Of a stretch of 64,000 nt of DNA, positions 2,895-41,324 are shown in pieces (position 1 is the first letter of the stretch; each line of letters opens with the position of its first letter). The translations under genes were made by a program, and so were the position numbers. The stretch spans positions 124,001 through 188,000 of the forward strand of contig MU058017.1 of assembly GCA_013265495.1 (NCBI GenBank), given 5' to 3'. The stretch is from Vicugna vicugna (taxonomy: Eukaryota). The notes under the pieces are model-generated. The model searched no databases. It had not been told where the DNA came from and worked only from the letters and a program-made list of their open reading frames with translations.

Positions 2895-3115
2895 AAGAAA
2901 GCTTTGGTTTTGGTGTCAGACAGACCTGAGTTCTGAATCTGAATCCCCTTAACACTGCATAAACTTTAACTGAATAAATAAGTACTCTGAATCTCAGCTT
3001 CCTCATCGGAAAAATGGGAACTAATAATAGGGTTGTTGTAAGATTAAATGTGGTAATATACACATAGTGGTAAGCAAGCACAGAGTTGACATGTGGCAGA
3101 TCAATCAATAAAACT
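2895..3115 (+). mobile_element. MIR SINE
   Basis: gtcagacagacctgagttc...ctctgaatctcagcttcctcatcggaaaaatggga...gggttgttgtaagattaaatg. Confidence 0.85.
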
Positions 3116-3334
3116 ATCATCAAGATATTTTATAAGAAATAGGTAAAAGTTATTTTTAAAAATCTCCTAACCTCTAAATTACTTTTTCTCAAAATGAGGC
3201 ATGAGGAAAATTTGCAGCAACATCACAGTATGGGATGCTCATTTCTGGCTCCCACACAGATCTCCGCAATTTTCCTAATGTATTTATTATTGAATTAAGC
3301 AGGTTGATAATATAGAACATAATCTAGGAAGGTC

Positions 3335-3585
3335 ACTTTAGACAAGGTGGGCTGGTAAAACCTGGTCAGAGGAGGTGACAGCTGAACTGAGACTTAAAGG
3401 AGGAAACTGAGACCAACACAGAAAGTTGGGGGGAAAGCATTTCAGGCAGAAAGAATGAAAAAAAAAAATTAATGGCCTGGCAGTCTGAAGACTTGGCATG
3501 CTGTTAAAAGAGACAAATGTAATTGGAATGTAGTGAGAGAGAAGAATGGCATGAAATGATACTGGAGGTGTTAGAGAAGAAAGAA
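3335..3585 (-). mobile_element. L2 3' fragment
   Basis: gaggaggtgacagctgaactgagactt...agcatttcaggcagaaaga: typical antisense L2 3' motifs. Confidence 0.7.
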
Positions 3586-3589
3586 ATTG

Positions 3590-5820
3590 TCCCCTCTTAG
3601 GCCACTCACATACATTTTCTTCCCACTGTAAATTCTTCCCATCTGGAAGCATCTTTTCCAGAATTAAAGTTGGTCTCTTTTTCTTGGGAACTATACAAGG
3701 GTTGGTTAATGGGATAAACTATGGGAACTACCATACTGCTGTCTCGCCAGCAACTGATATTCATCATCTCTCTCCTCTACCAACCATTCTAGATTCCCTT
3801 CAGTTAGCATTTCTGCTGGTCTAGGTGGCTTACTTGGTGGGTAGCCCACACCATTATTCATGATGAATCTAAGTCCCTGGTCACCATGACATTCTCAGGC
3901 CATTACTAATGTACTTTACCATTACTATCAAAATTGAGCAGACTTGCAGGGCCATGGCTAAAGATGGCCCACTGGACCGTCTGGTTGCCAAATATATTCT
4001 TCCCTGTTCCCACTACATAATAGCTGCTCTACTTCCCCCTAGTATTTAGGGTCAGTTATGCTTTCCCTCTAATCTCTTTGCATGAGGAGCCTATAGTAGC
4101 TGGAAGACAGCCATACCTTAAGTCACCTGGACATTTACTATATACCCTAATAAAAGCATTACACCCTGTAACCTCTAGCCTCAGAGCATAAAGCTCTTGG
4201 ATTGGAAAGTACATTATTTCCCCTATGTGGATCACTGAAAGTAATGATATGTGGGGCAGTTCTGATTTCCACACCTTGGTTCATGAACCAATTTATTAAA
4301 CCTACTGACATAACACTATATGAAGTCATTGATCTAGAGGTGGTGTCAATACATTTTTTTTCTGTAAAAGATTTAACAGTAAATATTTTAGGTGTTGCAG
4401 ATCATATGGTTTTGTCACAACTACTCAACTTTGCCACTACAGTGTGAAAGCTATCAAAGGCAATATGTAAATGAAAAAAAATGATTGTGTTCTAATTAAA
4501 CTTTATTAACAACAAAGGTGGCAGGCCAGATATGGTGCTTGGACTGCAGTTTGTTGGCCTCTGATTTGGAGTGTACAGTGCATCCTCGAAGATGACACCC
4601 ACTTCTTGCAGAGTCATATCCTAGCTGATGCAAGGGCTGCATAATCAAAAGATCGTTGGATCACCCTTTCAGGTTGGTAGCTTCTGGGCAGTGAGGTGGC
4701 ATGTGACAAGACCCACTACCACACCCTCTTTGTTGCAGGTGGGATTTGGGATCTGATTTGATGTTATGTGGGATATCTGATTATCTGGTCATCAGATTAA
4801 ATATTTTGTAGCCCTCAAATAGTGGTGCTGGCCAAGGATACATCAGCAGGAATGACAAAATAAAAGCCACTTTCTCCAGGGTAAAAGTGACCCAATGTAA
4901 CCAATTTATTATCAATTGTCTGGGTATCCTTTTCAAGCAATTAGGCCTCAGTATTAGTTTCTCTTGCTGACATGTTGGATATTTAGAAGGGATAGTAGCT
5001 AGGTAAGTTTTGATAAGTGGGAACAGATGAGTTGGGCCCAGGAAGAGCCTCTATTCTTGTCATCCTGGCTAATCCATTCATGAGCTCATTGTCCCAGCAT
5101 TGAGGTGGTAGATGACAGATGCTATCTGACATCAGCTGGCCCATAAGTTCAACATGGTAATTTTCCTCACTATAAAAGTCTCTAGTAACATAAGGTCTGC
5201 GGGGTCATATGGTCCATGTATTAGAGCTATTTGTATTACGGCCTGATCTTGCTACAGACCTCTTACCTACCTGCTTTGAGCCTCACTAAAAGCAGGTAGC
5301 ATTTATGCCACTTGATAAGTGGATCCAAGAAGTATTACCAAGTGTAAAATGTTGCCTCCCAATACCTAAGGAGGCATACAAAGTGCTGTGCTACCTTCCT
5401 AGTGGTGAGACGTATGAGGTGTAAAAGCTTTCTGATTATGGAGGTGATATACAGACATGCTCCTGACTACTGTGAAATTCAATTATGTGGCAGTTTATGA
5501 ATCTTCCTAATGCATATCCCCCACCTCTGGAGCATATGTCTTATCAAGGCACTCATATATCTCATCAAGGGCTGCAACATATTCATCACCCATTGCTTAG
5601 CTGTTCCAGTTAACAAGAGCTATCACTATAAAGGACCAATGTGATACACTATAGAGTATCCAAATGGCTGATGTCTCTTGGAACAATATTATGAGACAGC
5701 TGGAGAGTTTACATAGCCTGAATCAAGACTGTAATGTTCTGTATTTTCTATTCTATGTGAATGCAGTTTTAACCTCTCTTTTGACAGATGAAAAATATTA
5801 CATTTGTCAGATTAATGTCA
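3590..5820 (-). mobile_element. ERVL-class internal region (pol and 3' internal), decayed; LTR16-associated
   Basis: The minus strand gives frameshifted ERVL RT-like motifs (LIRHM.SRG, LLHL...TTRK.AQHFV.L...W.QH, IYQV-like); a purine tract (AAGAGGGGAC) marks the 3' end near 3590; interrupted by MER58A. Confidence 0.75.
4340..4563 (+). mobile_element. MER58A hAT-Charlie MITE
   Basis: ttttctgtaaaag...gtaaatattttagg...acaactactcaactttgccact...ggcaggccagat...tgcagtttg; candidate 8-bp TSD atctagag / atttggag. Confidence 0.85.
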
Positions 5821-33320: not shown

Positions 33321-36300
33321 AACTCTTCCAGAAGATTTAAAAGGAGGGAGTACTCCCAAACTCATTCTATGAAGCCACCATCACCCTGATACCAAAACAA
33401 GGCAAAGATACCACCAAAAAAGAGAATTACAGACCAATACCACTAATGAACATAGATGCAAAAATCCTTACCAAAATATTAGCAAATAGAATCTAACAGC
33501 ACATAAAACAGATGATACACCATGATCAAGTGGGGTTCATCCCAGGAACACAAGGGTGGTTCAACATACACAAATCAATCAATGTAATACATCACATCAA
33601 CAAAAGAAAGGACAAAAACCACATGAACCTCTCAATAGATGTAGAAAAAGCATTTGATAAAATTCAACACCCATTCATGATAAAAACTCTCACCAAAGTG
33701 GGTGTAGAGGGAGCATATCTCAACATAATAAAAGCTATATATGACAAAACTACAGCCAGCATAGTACTCAATGGTGAAAAACTCAAAAGCTTCCCACTAA
33801 AATCTGGGACAACACAAGGATGCCCACTATCACCACTCCTATTTAACATAGTCTTGGAAGTCCTAGCTACAGCAATTAGGCAAGAGAGAGAAATAAAAGG
33901 AATCCAAACTGGAAAAGAAGAGGTAAAAGTGTCACTACATATATGCCTATGACATGTTACTATACACAGAAAACCCTAAAAGGTCCACACAAAAACTACT
34001 AGAGCTGATCAAAGAATTCAGCAAGGTAGCAGGTTACAAGATTAATGTTCAAAAATCAGTTGCATTTCTTTACACTAACGATAAATCAACAGAAAAAGAA
34101 AGTAAAGAAACAATCCCCTTTAAAATAGTACCCAAAGTAATAAAATATCTGGGAATAAATCTAACCAAGGAGGTGAAAGAATTATACACAGAAAACTATA
34201 AACCACTGATGAAGGAAATTAAAGAAGACTTTAAAAAATGGAAAGATATCCCATGCTCTTGGATTGGAAGAATCAATATTGTTAAAATGGTCATACTGCC
34301 CAAGGCAAGCTACAGATTTAATGCAATCCCTATCAAATCACCCAGACATATTTCACAGAACTAGAACAAATCATAATAAAATTTATATGGAACCACAAAA
34401 GACCTAGAATTGCCAAAATATTACTGAAGAAAAAGAAAGAGGCTGGAGGAATAACTCTCCCAGACTTCAGACAATACTACAGAGCTACAGTCATCAAGAC
34501 AGCATGGTATTGGTACAAAAACAGACATATAGACCAACGGAACAGAATAGAGAGCCCAGAAATGAACCCACAGACTTTTGGTCAACTCATCTTTGACAAA
34601 GGAGGCAAGAATATACAATGGAATAAAGACAGTTTCTTCAGCAAATGGTGTTGGGAAAATTGGACAGCAGCATGTAAATCAATGAAGCTAGAACACTCCC
34701 TTACACGATATACAAAAATAAACTCAAAATGCATCAAAGACTTAAACATAAGACAAGATATGATAAACCTCCTAGAAGAAAACATAGGCAAAACATCATC
34801 TGACATACATCTCAAAAATGTTCTCCTAGGGCAGTCTACCCAAGCAATAGAAATAAAAGCAAGAAGAAACAATTGGGACCTAATTAAACTTACAAGCTTC
34901 TGCAAACTTACAAGCAAAGAAAACCATAAGTAAAACAAAAAGCAACCTAAGGAATAGGAAAAAATTTTTGCAAATGAAACCGACAAAGGCTTGATCTCCA
35001 GAATATACAAGCAGCTCATAAGACTTAATAAGAAAAAAAACAAACAACCCAATCCAAAAATGGGAAAAAGACCTAAACAAGCAATTCTCCAAGAAAGAAA
35101 TACAAATAATCAATAAGCACATGAAAAAATGCTCAATATTACTAATTATTAGAGAAATGCAAATCAAAACTACAATGAGGTATCACCTCACACCAGTCAG
35201 AATGGCCGTCATTCAAAAATCCAAAGACAAGATATGATAAACCTCCTAGAAGAAAACATAGGCAAAACATCATCTGACATACATCTCAAAAATGTTCTCC
35301 TAGGGCAGTCTACCCAAGCAATAGAAATAAAAGCAAGAAGAAACAATTGGGACCTAATTAAACTTACAAGCTTCTGCAAACTTACAAGCAAAGAAAACCA
35401 TAAGTAAAACAAAAAGCAACCTAAGGAATAGGAAAAAATTTTTGCAAATGAAACCGACAAAGGCTTGATCTCCAGAATATACAAGCAGCTCATAAGACTT
35501 AATAAGAAAAAAAACAAACAACCCAATCCAAAAATGGGAAAAAGACCTAAACAAGCAATTCTCCAAGAAAGAAATACAAATAATCAATAAGCACATGAAA
35601 AAATGCTCAATATTACTAATTATTAGAGAAATGCAAATCAAAACTACAATGAGGTATCACCTCACACCAGTCAGAATGGCCGTCATTCAAAAGTCCACAA
35701 ATGACAAATGCTGGAGAGGCTGTGGAGAAAGGGGAACCCTCCTACACTGCTGGTGGGAATGCAGTTTGGTGCAGCCACTGTGGAAAACAGTATGGAAATT
35801 CCTCAAAAGACTAGGAATAGACTTACCATATGACCCAGGAATCCCACTCCTGGGCATATATCCAGAAGGAACCCTACTTCAACATGACACCTGCACCCCA
35901 GTGTTCATACCAGCACTATTTACAATAGCCAAGACATGGAAACCCTAAATGTCCATCAACAGAGAACTGGATAAAGAAGAGGTGGTATATTTATACAATG
36001 GAATACTATTCAGCCATAAAAACCAACAACATTAACGCCATTTGCAGCAACACAGATGTTCCTGGAGAATGTGAAGTAAGCCAGAAAGAGAAAGAAAAAT
36101 ACAATATGAGATCGCTCATATGTGGAATCTAAAAAAAAAAAAAAAACAAAAAACAAAACATAAATATAAAACAGAAACAGGCTCGTAGACATAGAATACA
36201 AACTTGTGGTTGCCAGGGGGGCAGAGGGTGGGAAGGGACAGACTGGGATTTCAAACTGTAGAACACATAAACAGGGTTATACTGCATAGCACGGGGAAAT

Positions 36301-36471: not shown

Positions 36472-39400
36472 AACTTTCCACTACAAGGAGCTAGGGAAAA
36501 AAACCTAAGCCCAACATTAGCAGAAGGAAGGAAATTTCAAGATAAAAGCAGAAATCAATGAAATAGAGAGTAGAAAAATGATAGAAAAGACTGACAAAAC
36601 TAAGATTGGATTTTGAAAATAAAGACAAAATTGAAAAACCTTTAGCTAGAATCAATCAAAAAAATAAGATAGTACTCAAATAAGTAAAATTACAAATGAG
36701 AGAGAAGATACTACAACTGATACCACAGAAATATATTATATAGTACATAGTATATAGCATAGGACAATTATACACCAACAAATTGGCAACCTAGAAGAAA
36801 TGAATAAATTCCTAGAAACACAAAATCTACCAGGACTGAATGATGAATAAATAGAAGATGTGAACAGAATACTGAATAAGGCTATTTGGTCAATAACCAA
36901 AAATCTCCCAACAAGGAAAAGCCCATGACCAGATGGATTCACTAGTGAATTCAAGCAAACTTTAAAGAAGAATTAACGTCAATCCTTCTCAAACTATTCC
37001 AAAAAACTGAAGAGGAGGGAGTGCTTCCAAACTCATCCCATGAAGCTAGCATTACCCTGATAGCAGAGTCAGATAAGGATACCACAAGAAATGAAAATCA
37101 CAGGCTAAAATTCCTCATAAATATAAATGCAAAAATTCTCAACAAAACACTAGCAAACTAAATTCAACAGCACATTTGAATGGATCATACAGCATGACCA
37201 AGTGCAATTTATCCCTGAGATGCAAGGACATTTCAACATATGAAAATCAATCAACGTGATGCACTACATTAACTGAATAAAGGATAAAAATTACATAGTC
37301 ATCTCAGTAAATGCAGATAAAGATTTGGCAAAATTAACATTCTCTTATGATAAAAACTCAATAAATTAGGTAGAAGAAATGTACCTCAAAGTAATAAAAG
37401 CCATATACGACAAGCCCGCAGCTAACATCTGGTTCGATGAAAAGTTGAAAGCTTGTTCTCTAAGATCAGAAACAAAATAAGTGTGCTCACTCCTACCACC
37501 TCTATTCAACATAGTACTGAAAGTTTAGCCTGAGCAATTCAACAAGAAAGGAAACAAAAGGCATCAAAGTTAGAAAGAAAGAAGTAAAACTGTCTCTGTT
37601 TGCAGATGACAGGATCTTATACATATATAAAATCCTAAAGATTCTACCAAGACTCTAAGCACTAATAAATTCAGTAAAGTTGCAGGATACATAATCAACC
37701 TACAAAAATCAGTTCACTTCTATACACTACAATGAACTATCCAAAAAAGAATTTAAGAAAACAATTCCATTTACAATAGCACCAAAAAGAATAAAATACT
37801 TAGGAATAAACTTAACCAAGAAGGTGAAAAATGTGTACACTGAAAACTATAAAATATTGATAAAAGAAATTGAAGAAGACACAAATAAATGGGAAAATGT
37901 CCTGTACTTATAGTTTGGAAGAATGAGTATTATTAGAGTACACATAGTATGCAAAGTCATCTACAGATTTAATATAATCCTTGTTAAAATTCTAATGTTA
38001 TTTTTCACAGAAATAGAAAAAACAATCCTAAAATCCATATGAAACTACAAACGATCCCAAATAGTTAAAACAGTCTTGAATAAGAACTCTGAACAAACTT
38101 TTGAACAAGGTCATTGATGGAAGGTCACACTTCCTGATTTCAAAATATATTAGAAAGCTAAAGAAATCAAAACTGGCATAAAAAGAGTATAGGCTAACGG
38201 AAGAGAAAAGATAGCCTAGAAATAAATTCATATATTTGTGGCCAACTGATTTTCAACAATTGTGCCAAGAATAACACTCTTCAATAAATACTGTTGGGAA
38301 AACTGGGTATCTACATCCAGAGGAATGAAATTGAATCCATATTTCACACTATATACAAAAACAAATTCAAAATGGATTCCAGACTTAAATTTAAGACCTG
38401 ATAGTATAAAACTCTAGAATAAAACATAAGGAAAAAGCTTCTTGACATTGGTCTGTGCAATGATTATTTTTAGATATGCTCCCAAAAGCACAAACAACAG
38501 AAGTGAAAATAGACGAGTGGGATCACATCTAACTAAAACACTTTTGCATAGCAAAGGAAACAGTCAACAGAGTGAAAAGGCAACCTACAGAATGAGGTGG
38601 GGGGGATTGCAAATAACACGTCTGATAAGGAATTAATATCCAAAATATATAAGCAACTCCTACAACTCAATAGCAAAATATAAAATGAAAGATAACCTGA
38701 TGAAAATATGGGTAAAAGGCCTGAACAGACATTCCCCAAAAGAAAACATACAAATGGCCATCAAGTATAGAAAAAGGTGTTGAATATCACTAAGCATCAG
38801 GGAAATGCGAATAGAAACAACGAGATATTACTTCAAACCTGTCAAGATGGCAATTACTTAAAAACAAAAAAATAACAAGTGTTGGCAAGGACGTGGAGAA
38901 AAGGGAACTCTGGCACAGTGATGGAGGGAACGTAAATTGGTACAGCCATTATGGAAAACAGTAAGCAGGTTCTTCAAAACTTAAAAACAGACTACCTTAT
39001 AATTTAGCAATCCCACTCTGGGTATATATCTAAAAGAAGCAAATTCAGTATCTCAAAGAGTATCAGCACTCCCATGTTCATTGTAGCACAATAGCCAAGA
39101 TATGGAAATGACTTCAGTGTCTGTCAATGGATGAATGAATAGAGAAAATGTGATATAATAGAATATTATTTAGCCTTAAAAAAAAAGAAATTGTACTATC
39201 TGTGTCAATGTTAAGTGAAATAAGCCAGACACACAAAGACAAATACTGCATGGTATCTCTTATATGAACAATATAAAAAATTTAAACTCTTAAAAACAGA
39301 GGGTAGAATGATGATTGCCAAAGGTTAGGGGTATGGGGGAAACAGGATGTTGGTAAAGCAAAGGGTACAAAGTTTCAGTTTGAAAGATGATTAAGTTCTG

Positions 39401-39799
39401 GCAACCATTATAGCATGGTGACTAGTTAATACTATAGTGCATGCTTGAAATGTGCCAGAGTAGCGCTTAAGTGTTCTCACCACACCCACAAAAATGCTAA
39501 ATGTGAAGTTTATGGACATGTTAATAGAGTTTTTAGACGTGACACTAAAAGTACAATTCATAAAAGGAAAAAACTGAGAAATTGGATCTCATTAAAAAAA
39601 TTTTTCCTGTGAAAAGACCTTGTGATAAGGATGTAAAGACAAGTTACAGACTAGGAGAAAACATTTGCAAACCACATATACAACAAAGAACTAGTATCTT
39701 TGATATATAGAGAACATCAAAATCCAGCAGTAAGACAAACAAACAATCTAGTTAGAACATGGGTAAAGGAGGTAAAGACACATTCACTGAAAATGAAAG

Positions 39800-40240
39800 C
39801 CTCCGTCTCCAGGACGCCGGCACCACAGCGCGGCCTGGCTGACACAGGGCCTTTTTCTCCCCAGAATCTTGACGCCATCCCTCCCAGCCCAGCCGGGACC
39901 ATGTTCACGTGTACCTGTCGGTAAAGGAATGGCTGCTGCTCCTCAGCCCCCTCCTCCTCCTCCATCATCACAGCAAGCGGGCCCTGCGGCTGGAAGGCCC
40001 AGTAGGATTTTCCCGCCAGGGCACCGGGCCGCGCGGGAAAGTGGGAGACCGGTAGCCAAAGCGAGAAGCTGCCGGCTGCTTGGCGCATGCCCCCTGGCGG
40101 CGGCTGTGGGAAGGGTGCCTCGCGGCCAGCTGCTCCCGCCCCACCGCGGCGCCCTGGGTACTCCACACCCAGCTCAGTGCCCCGCGCAGTAGTTACCACA
40201 GTTCTTGGAAACGCGCGGGCGGGCGGGCGTGCGTGCGTGT
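39800..40240. promoter_or_regulatory. CpG island with promoter motifs (2x E2F, GC boxes, CTCF-like)
   Basis: ~38 CpG in ~440 bp by hand count; TTTCCCGCC 40009-17; GCGCGGGAAA 40031-40; CCGCCAGGGGGCA on - at 40088-40100; CCCGCCCC 40135-42; GGGCGGGCGGGCG ~40217-29. Confidence 0.75.
39915..39968 (-). pseudogene. CENPS: CENP-S (APITD1/MHF1) first coding exon copy followed by a splice donor
   Basis: (M)MEEEEGAEEQQPFLYRQ vs human N-terminus MEEEAETEEQQRFSYQQ as recalled (11/17, ungapped); followed by CAG|GTACAC instead of the exon 2 sequence RLKAAVHY; no further CENPS exons recognised in the window. Confidence 0.8.
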
Positions 40241-41324
40241 GTCTGTAAGGACAGCAGTACACAACTCTTTATTGTAAATTCCATGCTGCTGTAACCTGGG
40301 TAGGCCTTGCAAAATGCAATGTGGGTTTTTATAATTCTGTCACTGTACAGTCAAGAAGTTAGATGCGTAAATGCTTGATTTCTATCCCATTTAGTGAATA
40401 AACTGCTCACCCCATTAACACTGGGGAAAAAATGTACAGATGGCAAGTAAGCACAGGGAAAAAAATCAACATAATTAGTCAGTAGGTAAATGCAAATTAA
40501 AGCCACAAGAAGATATTACAATGGCTATTAGAATGGCTAAAATAAAAGAACAGTGACAACACCAAATGTTGCTAAGGATACAAAGAAATTGGACCACTCA
40601 TATATTGCTGGTAGGAATATAAAATGGTACAGCCACTATGGCAAACAGTTTGGCAGTTTCTTCTAAAACTTAAAACACATTCACCACACAACCCAGCAGT
40701 TGGACTTTTGGGCATTTATCCCAGAGAAATAAACACTTATGCTCACTTGAAATCTCTATCTGAATTTTTATAGATTTATTTGTATTAACCAAAAACTGTT
40801 AACAGCCTAGATGCCCTTAAATAGGTGAATAGTTAGACTGTGTTACAATCATACCATGAACTACTCAGGAGAAAAAAAAAACAACCCGTTGATACACATG
40901 ACAATCTCTCCAGAGGATTATGCTAAGTGAAAACGACTCTCCAGGGAAATCTGTTATATGAAAAGATTACATACTGTATGATTCCATTCATACAACATTC
41001 TTGAAATAACAAAACTACAGAAATTAAAAACAAATTGTTTGTCAGGGATGCAAGAAGGGCTGGGGATGAGAGAGAAGTGGGCATGGCTATAAAAGGGCAA
41101 CATGAAGAATCTTTGTCATGATGTACATGTTCTATATCTTATCATATCAATTTCAATTTTAATTTCCGGGCTATAATATCACACTATAGTTTTGTAAGAT
41201 GTTACCATTGGGGAAAACTGAATACACGGTACATGAGATCTCCCTGATAATTTTTACAATCACTTGTGAATCTATAATTATCACAAAAACAAAAAGTTTA
41301 GAAAACAATGTTTTTAAAGTAAGG

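Follow-up and report, generated by a model that had tools for sequence, protein, structure and literature searches.

The window analysed here, a 64,000-nucleotide stretch of Vicugna vicugna DNA (assembly GCA_013265495.1, contig MU058017.1, positions 124,001 to 188,000 of the forward strand), contains an L1 ORF2 fragment interrupted by 633 bases (window positions 39796-40428) of non-L1 origin. In antisense orientation, the interrupting block runs colinear with a segment of CENPS, the gene for centromere protein S, that takes in 115 nt of intron 1, exon 1 and the ~420 bp preceding the ATG. With high probability, L1 machinery made it by retrocopying an RNA that was unspliced, polyadenylated and antisense to CENPS. 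The parental gene, two sister copies elsewhere in the assembly, and the junctions of all three insertions carry this interpretation.

The insert and its L1 host

The insert differs in composition from its surroundings: the flanks have a G+C of 0.30-0.35, whereas values within 39800-40200 reach 0.65-0.71, and CpG counts per 100 nt go from 0 in the flanks to 4-11 inside. Overall it has ~60% G+C (0.596) and 39 CpG. Its components and the adjoining L1 parts are given below, with parental positions in L016, a 10-kb stretch around the CENPS locus.

39564-39795, plus strand: left part of the host L1 ORF2 3'-region fragment (open reading frames (ORFs) and DNA matches to other L1 copies)
39790-39795, plus strand: first copy of the target-site duplication, AAAATG (bottom strand CATTTT/C, T-rich)
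39796-39799, plus strand: AAAG, four bases at the 5' junction that are not in the parent, which has TGCG there (alignment with the parent)
39800-39914, minus strand (gene sense): 115 nt from the start of CENPS intron 1, matching parent L016 4175-4292 colinearly
39915-39968, minus strand: coding part of CENPS exon 1, MMEEEEGAEEQQPFLYRQ, with the GT donor kept at 39914-39913 (ORF and parent comparison)
39969-40423, minus strand: 455 nt spanning the CENPS 5' untranslated region, the CpG-island promoter and DNA further upstream; the colinear parental segment is L016 4347-4766
40397-40402, plus strand: AATAAA, the putative hexamer of the antisense RNA, 21 nt before the homology end
40424-40428, plus strand: GGGAA, a probable A-tail remnant absent from the parent, which runs on ACCAAGG
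40429-40434, plus strand: second copy of the target-site duplication, AAAATG (direct read)
40435-40900, plus strand: right part of the host L1 ORF2 3'-region fragment (matches to several L1 copies of the window)

An earlier note, made from the letters of this stretch, had described a block at 39799-40432 interrupting a contiguous L1 ORF2 with a candidate aaaatg duplication. The composition jump, the L1 flanks and a continuous alignment to a younger L1 bear out the block, its coordinates were correct to within a few bases, and AAAATG indeed stands at both ends. The note also read CENPS exon 1 followed by CAG|GTAC on the minus strand, and we recover the same reading: that strand runs ATG ATG ... 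CAG|GTAC, translating as MMEEEEGAEEQQPFLYRQ and then entering the splice donor (ORF 39717-40268). The polyadenylation features lie on the plus strand, as it stated; the A-run it relied on is short, consisting of 6 A only, 4 of them inside the duplication. A T-rich nick of the CATTTT/C kind is a typical L1 endonuclease site. The last base common to the insert and the parent is 40423, and AAAG at the opposite end is either 5'-junction filler or the product of an uncertain alignment.

Both flanks belong to one L1. On the left, the stop-to-stop ORFs 39564-39710 and 39655-39924 read as L1 ORF2, the second of them starting EKTFANHIYNKELVSLIY... and resembling an ORF of a younger L1 at 35432; this flank also matches another L1 copy at 16006-15889 and aligns to the younger L1 at 35425-35720. 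On the right, ORF 40615-40773 reads ...VQPLWQTVWQFL...GIYPRE, again resembling the younger L1, which the flank matches at 35588-35660 and 35726-35863. The younger L1 (35432-35948) covers the equivalent ORF2 region without interruption. Offsets to it are 4223 on the 5' side (ORF starts 39655 vs 35432) and 4860 and 4858 on the 3' side, and the difference of 637 or 635 bases corresponds to the insert plus the duplication. Aligned directly to the younger L1, the two flanks are continuous across the junction: the host L1 is contiguous once the insert and one AAAATG are removed.

A second L1 ORF2 3'-region fragment (…IQMAIKYRKRC…) lies at 38430-39100, directly upstream of the host fragment, and the region is therefore a nest of L1 pieces. 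In the 3' part of a young L1, at 34750-35523, a stretch of at least 300 nt recurs exactly and in direct orientation at a spacing of 474 nt; the ORF list gives identical peptides twice, and the repeat may be a tandem duplication or an assembly artefact. A search of window 39500-40700 against Rfam returned one match, snoU85, which at 13.8 bits falls well short of its gathering score of 41 bits (E 0.35) and which we take as chance.

The CENPS gene, its copies and the antisense RNA

Searching the same assembly (G000, 2.03 Gb) with the insert gave five matches in four places, the insert itself included, and the parental 3' part used as query returned the same four places. Exons of CENP-S were located with the Pfam model PF15630 at a cut-off of 28 bits.

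C4839:129175-129766, colinear antisense hit: parent CENPS (assembly search)
C4839:125848-125973, minus strand: CENP-S exon (PF15630, 43.6 bits)
C4839:121339-121407, minus strand: CENP-S exon (PF15630, 31.6 bits)
C4688:1890029-1890618: sister copy (assembly search)
C6437:12542483-12542936: sister copy (assembly search)

The two CENP-S exons on C4839 lie 3.3 and 7.9 kb downstream of exon 1. Exon 2 (125848-125973) reads RLKAAVHYTVGCLCEEV... / RLKAAVHYTVGCLCEEVASDKEVQFSKQTIAAISEVTFRQC and matches solved Centromere protein S chains (E 2.4e-21), and ~3.3 kb upstream of it the parental sense strand reads MMEEEEGAEEQQRFSYRQ|GT (L016 4346-4293). On account of the PF15630 exons, the Centromere protein S match and this upstream exon 1, C4839 carries the true CENPS gene. 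The colinear antisense hit to intron 1, exon 1 and upstream DNA is what the earlier note had predicted for a same-genome search, and two of the findings it had named as contrary did not turn up: with 500 nt of flank added per side, homology to the parent remained confined to window 39799-40423 and went beyond neither junction, and the assembly has CENPS exon 1 sequence besides that of the insert.

PF15630 also scored above the cut-off at C6437:4708951-4709043 (37.6 bits) and C5010:17925214-17925354 (31.3 bits). Both places lack blastn similarity to the CENPS region; they are not CENPS copies at the DNA level and presumably belong to other histone-fold genes. Clusters of identical sub-threshold matches on C11148 and C7996 (24 bits, 60 residues) resemble tandem histone-fold gene arrays.

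The insert departs from a processed pseudogene in orientation, in intron removal and in promoter absence, with its hexamer and tail opposite the coding strand and exon 2 absent; it keeps 455 nt of DNA upstream of the ATG as well as 115 nt of intron 1. We assign it to the L1-mediated retrocopies and, from these sequence features, not to the processed pseudogenes of CENPS mRNA. No copy of the CENPS mRNA was found in the assembly, where the exon-2 peptide matches the parental gene only (1/1 candidate).

Comparison of 10-kb stretches around the three places (L016, parent; L017, C4688; L018, C6437) defined the extent of each copy.

Window copy: parent L016 4175-4766; 115 nt of intron 1, with the 5' end 117 nt beyond the donor; 3' end 21 nt after the proximal hexamer; duplication AAAATG, 6 bp
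C6437 copy: parent L016 4143-4847 with a 148-nt internal gap; 150 nt of intron 1; duplication AAAAAGAGGAG, 11 bp
C4688 copy: parent L016 3246-4847 with ~415 extra bases; 1047 nt of intron 1; duplication AAGAAAACAGA, 11 bp

Both sister copies end at the parental GAAACTCAA (4839-4847), 17 nt after AGTAAA (4825-4830), a usable variant of the polyadenylation hexamer; this distance and the 21 nt of the window copy both fall in the 10-30 nt range expected after such a hexamer. After GAAACTCAA follow AAAAAAA in C6437 and AAATAAAAAAAAAAAGAAAAAG in C4688, which are clear A tails, and the two 11-bp duplications begin with A runs. The flanks of the three insertions are unrelated to one another, and the sister-copy flanks gave no match to the window at E 1e-6. 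A single strand, hexamer-linked 3' ends, A tails, target-site duplications and variable 5' ends together characterize L1 target-primed reverse transcription. We interpret the three copies as repeated L1-mediated retroposition, at least three times, of one polyadenylated antisense RNA; since all three retain intron 1, exon 1 and promoter in colinear order, this RNA would have been an unspliced one running antisense to CENPS.

No fifth copy was found when the assembly was searched with the parental 3' part and with the intron part. The latter (query 750-1200) gave many weak hits, which mark a dispersed repeat within intron 1; this repeat, at L016 ~3050-3500, has >25 weak matches (66-91% identity, 40-230 nt) on many contigs, and the 5' end of the C4688 copy (3246) falls within it. 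The C6437 copy is without parental L016 4487-4634 (148 nt, part of the promoter and upstream DNA), the gap lying at L018 4798-4804. In the C4688 copy, ~415 bases absent from the parental intron occupy L017 6285-6700 (C4688:1891285-1891700) and include the 17-nt string GGCCTAACTCGTAAATC twice, reflecting a later insertion or a parental deletion. At L017 5500-5560 the exon 1 ATG pair of the same copy has become GTG ACG, with the GT donor kept.

The 5' ends of the copies bear on where the RNA began. The C6437 copy starts at parent 4143, right after the palindrome GCATGCGC (4135-4142), which we take to be an NRF1 site core, at a C|A step and with one extra G; an extra G at the 5' end of full-length retrocopies is cap-derived. 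The window copy starts 32 nt beyond that point, after the unshared AAAG, its first shared base being uncertain within ~2 nt, and both of these ends lie within the parental CpG island. Measured from the exon-1 donor, the three DNA 5' ends lie at 117, 150 and 1047 nt. We give an RNA start near the exon somewhat less than an even chance; the longest of these distances, in the C4688 copy, would call for another start deeper in the intron or for 5' truncation of all three copies. Of the antisense template proposed by the earlier note, colinearity and the sister copies uphold the template itself, and a start ~115 nt into intron 1 is not required, the C4688 copy having 1047 nt.

Two polyadenylation sites are indicated at the other end of the RNA, the window copy having used the proximal one. 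The proximal hexamer is AATAAA in the window and C6437 copies vs AACAAA in the parent and C4688, and the distal site is AGTAAA in the parent and C6437. The earlier note's expectation of a genomic AATAAA in the parent at the proximal site fails on today's AACAAA, and this site may no longer be used in the parent.

We propose that RNA polymerase II would start inside CENPS intron 1, either at a downstream antisense site belonging to the CpG island or deeper, and that the transcript would run against the gene over exon 1 and the core promoter before being cleaved and polyadenylated at one of the two sites upstream of CENPS. The L1 ORF2 protein, acting in trans, would then use the A tail to prime reverse transcription at a T-rich nick. 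Such retroposition would have taken place in the germline or early embryo at least three times across tens of millions of years. With an antisense and unspliced template, each copy would bring along the entire promoter island together with start codon and splice donor, which a copy of an mRNA cannot do.

Order of the copies and rival explanations

A four-way alignment of the window copy, the C4688 copy, the C6437 copy and the parent comprises 394 ungapped columns. Uncorrected differences from the parent are as follows.

Window copy: 115/564 (0.204); CpG-masked 0.135
C4688 copy: 117/678 (0.173); CpG-masked 0.134
C6437 copy: 68/543 (0.125); CpG-masked 0.085

Private changes in the 394 columns number 37 in the window copy, 32 in C4688, 19 in C6437 and 17 in the parent, and the 13 informative sites split 7:4:2, favouring (window, C4688 | parent, C6437). 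These distances fit separate births from an evolving parent, with two older copies and one younger. Mammalian substitution rates are 1-2 x 10^-9 per site per year, and the private branches would then correspond very roughly to ~45-95 and 25-50 million years, values that are CpG-inflated and to be read as orders of magnitude only.

Several points weigh against the antisense-RNA origin. The window copy is nearly without an A tail (GGGAA and the A's of the duplication), and its duplication is just 6 bp. Its identity to the parent is low, at 70% by BLAST with gaps. Today's parent has AACAAA and not the hexamer the window copy would have used, and the distribution of AATAAA and AACAAA requires two changes on any tree, or an old polymorphism. 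The 5' ends may all be truncations, which would leave the start site unfixed, and an RNA from parent 3246 or lower would have to pass uncleaved over three hexamers, AATAAA at 3378 and ATTAAA at both 3327 and 3692. The antisense RNA is moreover known from DNA copies only. Five sequencing runs recorded as RNA do contain sampled words of the parental stretch (shares of 0.23-0.29 in four runs of one study and 0.12 in a fifth, from another study), but sense exon 1 could supply all of them, and the shares therefore speak neither for nor against the antisense RNA. The words reach 0.94-1.00 in six runs whose kind is not stated, and the kind of several runs is a guess.

One alternative is a DNA-level event, in which a CENPS promoter fragment was captured in double-strand-break repair or moved by a small duplicative transposition, without RNA. 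Such an event would be at ease with the near-absent A tail and the 6-bp duplication of the window copy, and the retention of intron and promoter DNA is expected of a DNA copy. It does not predict sister copies that share a strand and a single end base and that have long A tails, 11-bp duplications and differing 5' ends, and the window copy itself ends 21 nt after AATAAA at a target with a T-rich bottom strand. We therefore consider it highly improbable. Joining of CENPS promoter reads into an L1 by the assembler has a practically negligible probability, and nothing in its favour was found: the differences at 115/564 sites mean that the block is not misplaced parental sequence, the L1 resumes exactly and AAAATG is duplicated, and a misassembly is very unlikely given 20% divergence and this exact resumption.

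Two other alternatives retain an RNA intermediate. The window block could derive from RNA of an earlier retrocopy, the candidate being C4688, perhaps with its antisense start region; transcription of C4688, a strong CpG island, could occur, and 7 of the 13 informative sites unite it with the window copy. Changes in the parent later than the departure of both old copies would, however, produce those seven sites just as readily, and the window copy has AATAAA where C4688 has AACAAA. The window copy is also no nearer C4688 (p 0.214; CpG-masked 0.157) than the parent (p 0.204; CpG-masked 0.135), and a copy of a copy is therefore disfavoured; we judge it decidedly improbable. Alternatively, a longer gene or read-through transcript opposite CENPS, perhaps spliced, could have supplied its 3' end as the template; all copies would then be 5'-truncated, with no start site close to exon 1. 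The 5' truncation of L1-mediated copies is usual, and the C4688 copy includes 1047 nt of intron 1. A distance of no more than 32 nt nevertheless separates two of the 5' ends, one of which abuts GCATGCGC at C|A with an extra G, and RNA from deeper would cross AATAAA/ATTAAA hexamers at 3327-3697. We regard this longer template as possible though rather unlikely; it departs from retroposition of a CENPS antisense RNA only in the position of the RNA start.

CpG islands in the copies and comparison with known systems

A CpG island is defined, after Gardiner-Garden and Frommer, by a length >200 bp, G+C >0.5 and observed/expected CpG >0.6, and all copies have this composition.

Window copy (633 nt): G+C 0.596; observed/expected CpG 0.70
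C4688 copy: G+C 0.651; observed/expected CpG 0.95
C6437 copy: G+C 0.586; observed/expected CpG 0.96
Parent: G+C 0.588; observed/expected CpG 0.99

CpG decay was counted from lineage-private changes at positions where the other sequences agree, under a strict filter that admits no gap within 3 columns and drops ambiguous ancestral CpG contexts.

Window copy: ancestral CpG positions changed, 18/53; others, 25/301; Fisher p 3.5e-6
Parent: ancestral CpG positions changed, 3/36; others, 24/368; Fisher p 0.723
C4688 copy: ancestral CpG positions changed, 1/32; others, 38/359; Fisher p 0.23
C6437 copy: ancestral CpG positions changed, 1/24; others, 13/288; Fisher p 1

A looser count gives the same picture (window, 25/102 vs 32/345; parent, 11/99 vs 30/424; C4688, 7/88 vs 48/436; C6437, 5/77 vs 17/325). 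Inside the L1, the window copy has lost CpG at ~4x the background rate. A 5x CpG rate would predict a loss of ~43% in C4688 (P of the observed value 4e-7) and ~21% in C6437 (P 0.03), and the two sister copies thus appear to have behaved as germline-unmethylated islands since their arrival.

The claim of the earlier note that L1 machinery can move an RNA polymerase II promoter is borne out as far as the physical transfer goes; the window copy, unlike its two sisters, has CpG decay. The string TTTTCCCGCC, presumably an E2F-type site, is present at 40008-40017 of the window copy and is shared by the parent and C6437, whereas C4688 has AATTTCCCGCC there. The window copy retains the ATG pair, the GT donor and TTTTCCCGCC but has an altered form of the parent's second E2F-like string.

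The copies amount to a natural transplant of one island to three foreign sites, two of which are without CpG decay after 5-10% other change and the third of which, in the L1, is eroding. This comparison is relevant to the question of whether a CpG island itself encodes its protection from methylation. Such protection by the island's own DNA is the view put forward in PMC5001583 and PMC4381937, and the absence of CpG decay in the two sister copies agrees with it.

The copies would also preserve, as fossil DNA, a polyadenylated promoter-antisense RNA once expressed in the germline, both of whose 3' ends are mapped to single-base precision. We tentatively suggest, as a conjecture that may well fail, that antisense RNAs starting just inside a gene and ending just upstream of it are a recurrent L1 vehicle for whole CpG-island promoters along with start codon and splice donor, and that the resulting retro-islands can by themselves escape germline methylation for tens of millions of years, as the absence of CpG decay in two of the three copies would suggest. 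If so, retro-islands could seed orphan CpG islands, new promoters or first exons, and the CENPS antisense RNA would have been a better germline L1 substrate than CENPS mRNA (3 copies vs 0 found). A genome-wide search could target retrocopies with an A tail upstream of, and antisense to, the parental first exon.

Retrocopies are usually thought to be promoterless, and the known exception requires that a sense transcript begin at a start site further upstream. Okamura and Nakai (2008; PMC2386082) describe L1-type retroposition that relocates parental CpG-island core promoters, with CpG-island genes favoured, and the CENPS copies have in common with that work a CpG-island core promoter retroposed to a new locus. 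The vehicle described there is a sense mRNA from an upstream start that carries a partial promoter and no intron, whereas the CENPS copies are antisense and unspliced, comprise the whole island, carry the ATG, splice donor and intron DNA, and have their A tail on the upstream side of the promoter. In the passages of that paper drawn on here, antisense is mentioned solely as a possible harm from insertions. Carelli et al. (2016; PMC4772013) report parental promoter sequence in ~3% of expressed retrocopies, in the cases described there always in sense and through an upstream alternative promoter; the presence of parental promoter sequence is shared, but those copies are expressed and the CENPS copies are known from DNA alone. 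In PMC3839921, the retrocopy PPP1R26P1 in RB1 intron 2 has a CpG island that persists and acts as a promoter. That island comes from a truncated PPP1R26 retrocopy, whereas the CENPS island is the parent's own promoter, moved via a putative antisense RNA.

Retrocopies of microRNA host genes have been used to deduce the exons and ends of non-coding parental RNA (PMC7692494), with the same reasoning from A tails, duplications and ends; the parents there are spliced microRNA hosts, and here a promoter-overlapping antisense RNA. For human genes, Lavender et al. (2016; PMC4972320) report antisense starts up to 2 kb downstream at 28% of gene starts, these downstream antisense transcription start sites (daTSS) lying at pyrimidine-purine steps and often close to the CpG island's downstream border. 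Two of the three 5' ends of the CENPS copies, 117-150 nt past the exon-1 donor and within the island, are comparable to daTSS in position. The evidence in PMC4972320 consists of nascent or capped RNAs from human cell lines, and that for CENPS consists of DNA copies alone, with an RNA that would reach polyadenylation sites upstream of the gene. Full-text word searches, which do not establish absence from print, found neither a published retrocopy of a promoter-overlapping antisense RNA with a whole promoter nor a published CENPS (APITD1) antisense RNA. Retroposition of promoters is already known; the probable vehicle here is an antisense transcript with the entire island, the first coding exon and its splice donor.

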